Shown: positions 24,473-24,786 of the stretch, piece by piece
Numbering within the stretch: position 1 is the stretch's first letter
Layout: each line of letters opens with the position of its first letter
From: Escherichia coli
GTDB taxonomy: Bacteria > Pseudomonadota > Gammaproteobacteria > Enterobacterales > Enterobacteriaceae
Length of the DNA stretch: 64,000 nucleotides
Assembly: GCF_003790525.1 (NCBI RefSeq)
Contig: NZ_CP033635.1
Strand: one strand, 5' to 3'
Notes under the pieces: generated by a model
The model's input: the letters and a program-made list of their open reading frames with translations, nothing else
The model's database searches: none
What the model was told of the DNA's origin: nothing
Translations under genes and position numbers: made by a program

Positions 24473-24484
24473 AAGTATGTACAC

Positions 24485-24515
24485 GGGCAGCACGACGCTG
24501 CCCGATTGCTTTCTG
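24485..24515 (+). terminator. Candidate terminator hairpin downstream of dapD
   Basis: GGGCAGC-ACGAC-GCTGCCC followed by a weak T-rich stretch (GATTGCTTTCTGG). Confidence 0.4.
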
Positions 24516-24786
24516 GTTCAGAATAATTCGTCCTGCTCATTCTTCCTCCCCCCTTTTTTAAATACTTTTTCATCTTGTTTCGGACTGTCATGTAATTCGC
24601 AAAACGAAGATAAATGTGCTAATCCATCCCATGGAATATCGCCACAATAAAGCAGGTAATTTTTTGATTTTTACGCCATGATAGAAGTCTGGAAGAAAAA
24701 GGCTTTCTGCGATCACAGTCGAGCCGGGCGGGCCAGGCCAAATGCTAAAATAAGCACAATTTACTGACTCATTTTGAGGTAACGCT

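Follow-up and report, generated by a model that had tools for sequence, protein, structure and literature searches.

A two-gene yaeI-orfX cassette and its probable deletion scar between dapD and yaeH in Escherichia coli SMS-3-5

The window analysed here is a 64-kb stretch of DNA that is identical (100%) to the reverse complement of part of the Escherichia coli SMS-3-5 chromosome (NC_010498.1), and it carries dapD and yaeH on one strand, separated by a gap of exactly 314 bp (24473-24786). The ORF coordinates confirm what a preliminary description of the sequence had read from the letters alone, namely that dapD stops at 24472 and yaeH starts at 24787. In K-12 MG1655 the corresponding gap is 1027 bp long and holds yaeI, a gene of 813 bp (270 aa) annotated as “phosphodiesterase YaeI” and oriented like its two neighbours, which bears out the order dapD-yaeI-yaeH and the length of about 0.8 kb that the preliminary description had given for K-12. 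The shortfall, put there at roughly 0.7 kb, is 713 bp, the K-12 spacing not being about 0.3 kb. Direct comparison with K-12 shows that the window is collinear with it through 24507, just beyond the dapD terminator hairpin, and that collinearity resumes at 24637 and runs on to yaeH; between these two breakpoints lie 129 bp that are unique to the allele in the window, for which the K-12 counterpart is a segment of 842 bp holding yaeI (positions 1836-2677 of the K-12 locus, L001). The features of the locus are collected in Table 1, among them the end of a reading frame to which we give the name orfX in this analysis.

Table 1. Features between dapD and yaeH in the window, with the flanking genes (asterisks mark stop codons).
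Feature	Position	Strand	Basis
dapD (274 aa), left flank	23648-24472, including stop codon	+	ORF list; annotated dapD in the identical SMS-3-5 record
Cassette-type dapD terminator region	24473-24507	+	Scan, left-junction comparison, profile match
dapD terminator hairpin, CGGGCAGCACGACGCTGCCCG	24484-24504	+	Terminator-like site in scan
Allele-specific 129-bp segment (“scar”)	24508-24636	+	K-12 breakpoints
Probable degenerate yaeI fragment, codons ~31-69	24514-24618	+	blastx, Smith-Waterman
C/T homopolymer tract	24542-24559	+	Length varies among scar alleles
orfX 3′ fragment, last 16 codons and stop, C*SIPWNIATIKQVIF*	24617-24667	+	blastx, nhmmer, tblastn
orfX-yaeH intergenic region	24668-24786	+	Kept in every Escherichia allele
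yaeH (DUF3461, 128 aa), right flank	24787-25173	+	ORF list and SMS-3-5 annotation

The apparent absence of yaeI between dapD and yaeH, noted in the preliminary description, is confirmed. The ORF list contains no metallophosphoesterase-like ORF in the 314-bp gap, an intact ORF of about 270 aa matching the YaeI family (NF008460; Pfam PF00149, Metallophos) is not present there, and the RefSeq annotation of SMS-3-5 has no feature between the two genes. As a positive control, K-12 YaeI scores 531 bits on NCBIfam NF008460. When eight YaeI alleles were searched by tblastn across the 64-kb window, the best match reached only E=0.27, and no relocated copy of yaeI was found elsewhere in the window by the same search. 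The K-12 locus (yaeI = b0164, NF008460) shares with the window its flanking genes, its dapD terminator hairpin and 150 bp of identical sequence upstream of yaeH, but in place of the intact 813-bp yaeI of K-12 there is in the window no more than a probable decayed fragment of about 35 codons, and the allele in the window is without any YaeI coding capacity.

A fuller version of the locus is found in Escherichia sp. MOD1-EC7003, where a 1.7-kb gap holds yaeI, then 14 bp, and then the 236-aa ORF orfX, whose 3′ end (...CEPVPWGIARIKQVIF*) continues into the right-hand sequence common to K-12 and SMS-3-5. The same order, dapD-yaeI-orfX-yaeH, occurs in E. coli GF43, E. albertii CP117570, Pseudocitrobacter cyperus and several metagenomic Enterobacteriaceae contigs, while Enterobacter sp. 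kpr-6 has orfX without yaeI (dapD-orfX-yaeH). In all orfX-bearing loci the orfX 3′ end and the orfX-yaeH spacer of about 118 bp are homologous to positions 24617-24786 of the window. The window therefore shares the site, the type of terminator, the orfX 3′ end and the spacer with the full cassettes of GF43, MOD1-EC7003, CP117570 and P. cyperus, and differs from them in being about 1.4 kb shorter at this site; in those genomes neither gene is broken and the gap measures about 1.7 kb. Within E. coli the full arrangement is exceedingly scarce: among 5426 complete genomes this orfX allele was found in GF43 alone, and at most seven E. coli records have room for a larger insert at the locus. In K-12 the yaeI stop is followed by only about 25 nt and then by ATAAAGCAGGTAATTTTTTGA, which represents the last orfX codons, a junction that recurs in BL21, D10, E. 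albertii NBRC 107761 and E. whittamii; the window keeps seven more orfX codons than K-12 does. To judge from its sequence, K-12 is itself a deletion derivative, without orfX save for these few terminal codons. The preliminary description had missed both that the lost unit would comprise two genes, yaeI and orfX, and that orfX is gone from K-12 too.

The orfX family is small (19 clusters when 5.8 billion proteins are grouped at 90% identity), and its members are about 235 aa long with invariant TCSxCxN and FHxxHCH motifs in the family alignment. Searches of Pfam, NCBIfam, PADLOC and PDB sequences with orfX gave no match. An AlphaFold2 model of OrfX is confident (pLDDT 89.8, pTM 0.89), and Foldseek returned about 145 proteins from many phyla that match it in size and are uncharacterised. 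The fold of OrfX is thus predicted with confidence, and none of its relatives has been solved. The remoter orfX homologues do not adjoin yaeI. For YaeI, an RRRF motif suggests export by the Tat pathway, and the K-12 protein scores 16.5 bits on TIGR01409 (TAT_signal_seq), just under the 16.7-bit cutoff.

At the left end of the gap, the dapD hairpin is common to all cassette-bearing alleles in a left-junction comparison of 13 loci, and gap positions 3-35 match a profile of the cassette (nhmmer, E=1.1e-5); the T-tract that follows the hairpin is broken in the window (ATTGCTTTCT), whereas K-12 has ATTTTTTTGC. At the right end, 24617-24786 matches the cassette profile with E=5.9e-54. The orfX remnant, which carries an in-frame TAA at 24620-24622, is 75% identical in blastx to the GF43 orfX C-terminus CEPVPWGIATIKQVIF, and the intergenic region beyond it is 100% identical to K-12 (119/119). 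Across the whole window the orfX C-terminus maps by tblastn only to 24617-24667; a full-length orfX ORF with the conserved Cys/His motifs is absent from the window, the last 16 codons with their in-frame stop being all that is there. Taking the window as reference copy, we defined the scar allele in this analysis by the arrangement found in it, that is, a left junction after the dapD hairpin, a right junction at about orfX codon 221, and 129 bp between the two. In eight aligned scar alleles the junctions are identical and the differences consist of point changes and of the length of the C/T tract, to which all indels are restricted. A minus-strand micro-ORF of 23 codons (24549 down to 24478) with a strong GGAGG in SMS-3-5 was considered but rejected, because its Shine-Dalgarno sequence falls within this indel-variable tract and several alleles have lost it. 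In the interval 24300-25300, Rfam (E<=10) gave only chance matches below the gathering thresholds, with sroE at 22.7 bits against 51, on the terminator hairpin.

Between these two ends, 24514-24618 reads in a single plus-strand frame as WFRIIRPA..HSSSPLF*ILFHLVSDCHVIRKTKINV and aligns with YaeI residues 31-69 (WFEVIHQRIPFFYHHRASPAFKVLF--LSDLHYSRNVPLSL), with an in-frame stop and indels. The match has E=0.007 in blastx against a small database and a Smith-Waterman score of 57, a value reached by none of 300 shuffles (32.0 ± 3.7, maximum 47) and by none of 1490 natural control segments of equal length taken from the window (33.5 ± 4.1, maximum 49). Its strand and order are those expected of a yaeI remnant, and it covers the first metallophosphoesterase motif region, which is degenerate in the scar (SDCH versus ADLH/SDLH), is preceded by an in-frame stop, and is all that survives of the metal-binding motifs (D-x-H and the others). 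The score of 57 is obtained against non-Escherichia alleles, and only 38 against K-12. At the DNA level, local alignment of the 129-bp segment with full cassettes does no better than shuffles, and nhmmer gives a collinear but sub-threshold match (E=0.15), so the case for a remnant rests on protein-level evidence; the search for YaeI remnants that the preliminary description had envisaged was thus rewarded with a degenerate fragment of codons ~31-69 in protein comparisons and with nothing significant in DNA comparisons. The yaeI start codon, the Tat signal and codons 70-270 are gone from the scar allele, the first 30 or so codons being absent without a recognisable junction, nor did we find any intermediate form, for instance a more complete yaeI pseudogene sharing the right junction of the scar. 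We regard 24514-24618 as probably, but not certainly, a true yaeI remnant. As a whole, the gap reads as a scar in which a decayed yaeI fragment is joined to the tail of orfX, with intact cassette ends on either side.

Among the 5426 complete E. coli genomes, K-12 yaeI is present in 2084 (38.4%) and the scar, in a single copy per genome, in 3338 (61.5%). The scar was counted with a 141-bp query (window 24505-24645) that contains the 129-bp segment; the matches have 90-100% identity, and all but one (3337) extend over 80% of the query or more. Since the two counts add up to 5422, against 5424 genomes that carry the locus, the site is essentially a two-state polymorphism in E. coli, in which SMS-3-5 has the majority state (61.5%) and K-12 the minority state (38%), and for this reason “missing relative to K-12” should not be taken to mean a strain-specific event. 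Carriers of the short allele include O157:H7, O25:H4, O99:H6, O113:H21 and SMS-3-5, and carriers of yaeI include K-12, BL21(DE3) and O111:H11. By the phylogroups of these strains, the distribution is lineage-associated, although not strictly so. The orthologous group of yaeI has been reported as enriched in phylogroup A (PMC5422975). Like an ordinary presence/absence polymorphism of an E. coli accessory gene, the locus has two principal forms at a single chromosomal position, the gene being present in the first and reduced to debris in the second; it departs from the ordinary case in that there are three alleles, that these are shared with other Escherichia species, and that the surviving yaeI is unusually divergent.

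Beyond E. coli, yaeI is present in E. albertii, E. whittamii and a third Escherichia lineage at 83-89% amino-acid identity, while Escherichia sp. E1V33, which is not E. coli, has the 314-bp short form with a 129-bp segment that is 93% identical. Between E1V33 and SMS-3-5 the flanking genes differ by 6-11%, the scar by 7% and the spacer by 1%, and the left-flank haplotype of E1V33 also occurs in E. coli 90-1 and O113:H21; on this pattern, the shared scar may be due to recombination instead of common descent. Other genera were surveyed with one YaeH scan of species-representative genomes, which yielded 80 loci, Salmonella, E. fergusonii and Shigella not being among them; the survey of other E. 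coli and Shigella genomes proposed in the preliminary description is accordingly filled by the counts given above for E. coli and not for Shigella. In about 70 species outside Escherichia (of Citrobacter, Klebsiella, Enterobacter, Raoultella, Kosakonia, Cedecea, Atlantibacter and others) the dapD-yaeH gap is about 110-125 bp long and without YaeI. The spacer in these outgroups has a terminator (AAAAAGCGGG....CCCGCTTTTTTT) and a TTCGTTAATTATTCA motif, and both the terminator and the sequence upstream of yaeH are different from those of E. coli: alignment of the window with the outgroup-type spacer shows no homology beyond the ribosome-binding site, and no outgroup locus was matched in a blastn search with the gap. 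Because some 70 species of other genera have this unrelated spacer of about 110 bp, both polarities stand at the level of the family: a few lineages may have gained the cassette, or it may be ancient and have been lost many times over. Other genes also occur at the dapD-yaeH junction, namely a 762-aa oxidoreductase-like ORF on the opposite strand in Enterobacter wuhouensis (L055 461-2749) and a 57-aa lipoprotein-like ORF in Enterobacter sp. BIGb0383 (L063 2619-2792), and insertions apparently recur at this site.

With a probability of about 0.85, we interpret the gap as the scar, old and widely inherited, of a deletion in a two-gene cassette, yaeI-orfX, whose place in Escherichia is between dapD and yaeH. 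The cassette encodes YaeI, a metallophosphoesterase with a twin-arginine signal motif, together with an uncharacterised protein of 236 aa, and comes with a dapD terminator and a yaeH upstream region of its own. The site has three alleles: the full cassette, which is very rare; the K-12 type, which has yaeI and, of orfX, a few terminal codons; and the SMS-3-5 type, which has neither gene and in which some 35 decayed yaeI codons would be joined to the 16 terminal codons of orfX. The full cassette would be the ancestral state in Escherichia, and the two common alleles would have arisen by deletion. As the scar retains the hairpin behind dapD and the entire region upstream of yaeH, the flanking genes would remain serviceable, and the loss would have no consequence beyond the missing YaeI, presumably being tolerated as the gene is dispensable.

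The preliminary description had offered a strain-specific deletion or a K-12-specific insertion. The deletion half of the first proposal agrees with the orfX and probable yaeI fragments in the gap, but its restriction to one strain fails. Nothing beyond the contrast with K-12 alone speaks for an event, or an assembly artefact, peculiar to SMS-3-5; the segment is shared by 3338 independent complete genomes, nearly all of them over most of the query, the eight diverse alleles have identical junctions, and E1V33 has the short form as well, which puts this explanation practically out of the question. For an insertion specific to K-12 or to a laboratory lineage, with the short spacer ancestral in E. 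coli and yaeI recently acquired by horizontal transfer, it can be said that most Enterobacteriaceae genera are without yaeI at the junction, and that YaeI homologues are sparse in the family and found at about 45% identity in Verrucomicrobiota and others. However, yaeI sits at the same site in 2084 E. coli genomes, in E. albertii, E. whittamii and other Escherichia, and in other genera, the short allele holds the orfX 3′ end and a yaeI fragment, and its spacer is homologous to that of the cassette and not to that of the outgroups; we consider such an insertion very unlikely, and at the level of the genus it survives only as a gain of the cassette before Escherichia diversified. It is also quite improbable that the scar came from an orfX-only allele or some other arrangement, with 24514-24618 as unrelated filler or a chance resemblance and no yaeI ever deleted here. 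An allele of this kind does exist, in kpr-6, yaeI is undetected in the scar by DNA-level searches, and the protein match is short (35 codons, about 35% identity); but that match scores above all 1790 controls, is collinear and on the right strand, and takes in WF..IR as well as the first metallophosphoesterase motif region (F.ILF..D.H..R), and the spacer upstream of orfX in kpr-6 is unlike the scar.

A further question is why the two deletions end so close to each other. The region 24668-24786 presumably carries the yaeH promoter and 5′ UTR: an RpoD-holoenzyme site in the K-12 yaeI-yaeH spacer is listed as directing yaeH (PMC3946193), and the spacer that holds it is kept in the window. A scan of 24300-25300 for consensus sigma-70 promoters found none, and TGCTAAAAT at 24743-24751 is a possible candidate for an extended -10 element. 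Among scar alleles, in a small sample taken from the divergent end of their ranking, diversity is 0.085 at dapD third positions, 0.073 in 24508-24554, 0.025 in 24555-24667, 0.002 (pi) in 24668-24786, and 0 in the first 54 nt of yaeH; low diversity near yaeH (24555-24840) is also seen in comparison with a different Escherichia species. This drop towards yaeH could reflect constraint on a long regulatory region, or a recombination tract. It is possible, though rather unlikely, that some 230 bp of sequence preceding yaeH, the right half of the scar among them, have been kept or exapted as a yaeH regulatory region, which would explain the near-coincident deletion ends. The fall in diversity and the RpoD site are consistent with this, as is the fact that K-12-type and scar-type deletions both end just upstream of ATAAAGCAGG. 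Against it stand the small sample with its bias to divergent alleles, the ability of a recombination tract to give the same gradient, the lack of Rfam and consensus promoter matches in the interval scanned, and the loss of the micro-ORF Shine-Dalgarno sequence in several alleles. One may also think of an ancient trans-species polymorphism of three alleles (yaeI-orfX, yaeI, neither), kept by selection and not by drift through niche-dependent YaeI and OrfX, with the debris lying within a constrained yaeH regulatory region; we find this unlikely, and if it were true, the periplasmic phosphodiesterase YaeI and OrfX would be beneficial in some niches only.

Where yaeI is intact, its dN/dS is 0.10-0.26, compared with about 0.01 for dapD, which indicates purifying selection on a functional but dispensable gene. 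The nucleotide identity of K-12 yaeI (L001 1854-2666) is 94% to that of BL21, 87% to D10 and 81% to GF43 (loci L099, L098 and L083), and dS between yaeI alleles is 0.14-0.74, versus 0.15-0.20 for the adjoining dapD. The divergence of intact yaeI within E. coli equals that between species. In strain 1506 an IS1-family element lies inside yaeI (NZ_CP059288.1 3696210-3697799), and truncated YaeI protein clusters of 153-227 aa exist; together these point to repeated independent inactivation of the gene.

The absence of yaeI is ordinary accessory-gene variation, yaeI being already recorded as a phylogroup-associated accessory gene, and it matters little alone, for SMS-3-5 is a published and annotated genome and yaeI a recognised accessory gene of E. 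coli. Its absence from many E. coli was likewise known before, so that the anatomy of the scar, the lost partner gene and the history of three alleles are what is added here, and the addition is incremental. If yaeI was once half of a two-gene unit whose other member, orfX, has disappeared from essentially all E. coli, this could bear on the physiological role of YaeI. The lost partner, the divergence of the yaeI alleles, and the unusually invariant region upstream of the conserved DUF3461 gene yaeH may be of interest to specialists.

The preliminary description also held that the neighbouring genes on both sides are spaced as in K-12, and this must be given up on the yaeH-cdaR side, where the spacer (window 25174-25226; L001 3215-3302) is 53 bp in the window and 88 bp in K-12. 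We tested whether this dimorphism is linked to the state of yaeI and rejected the link. The two forms are unrelated in sequence: the 53-bp form, with a hairpin terminator, occurs in SMS-3-5, GF43, E. albertii and one further locus (L005), and the 88-bp form in K-12, E1V33, E. whittamii and MOD1-EC7003.
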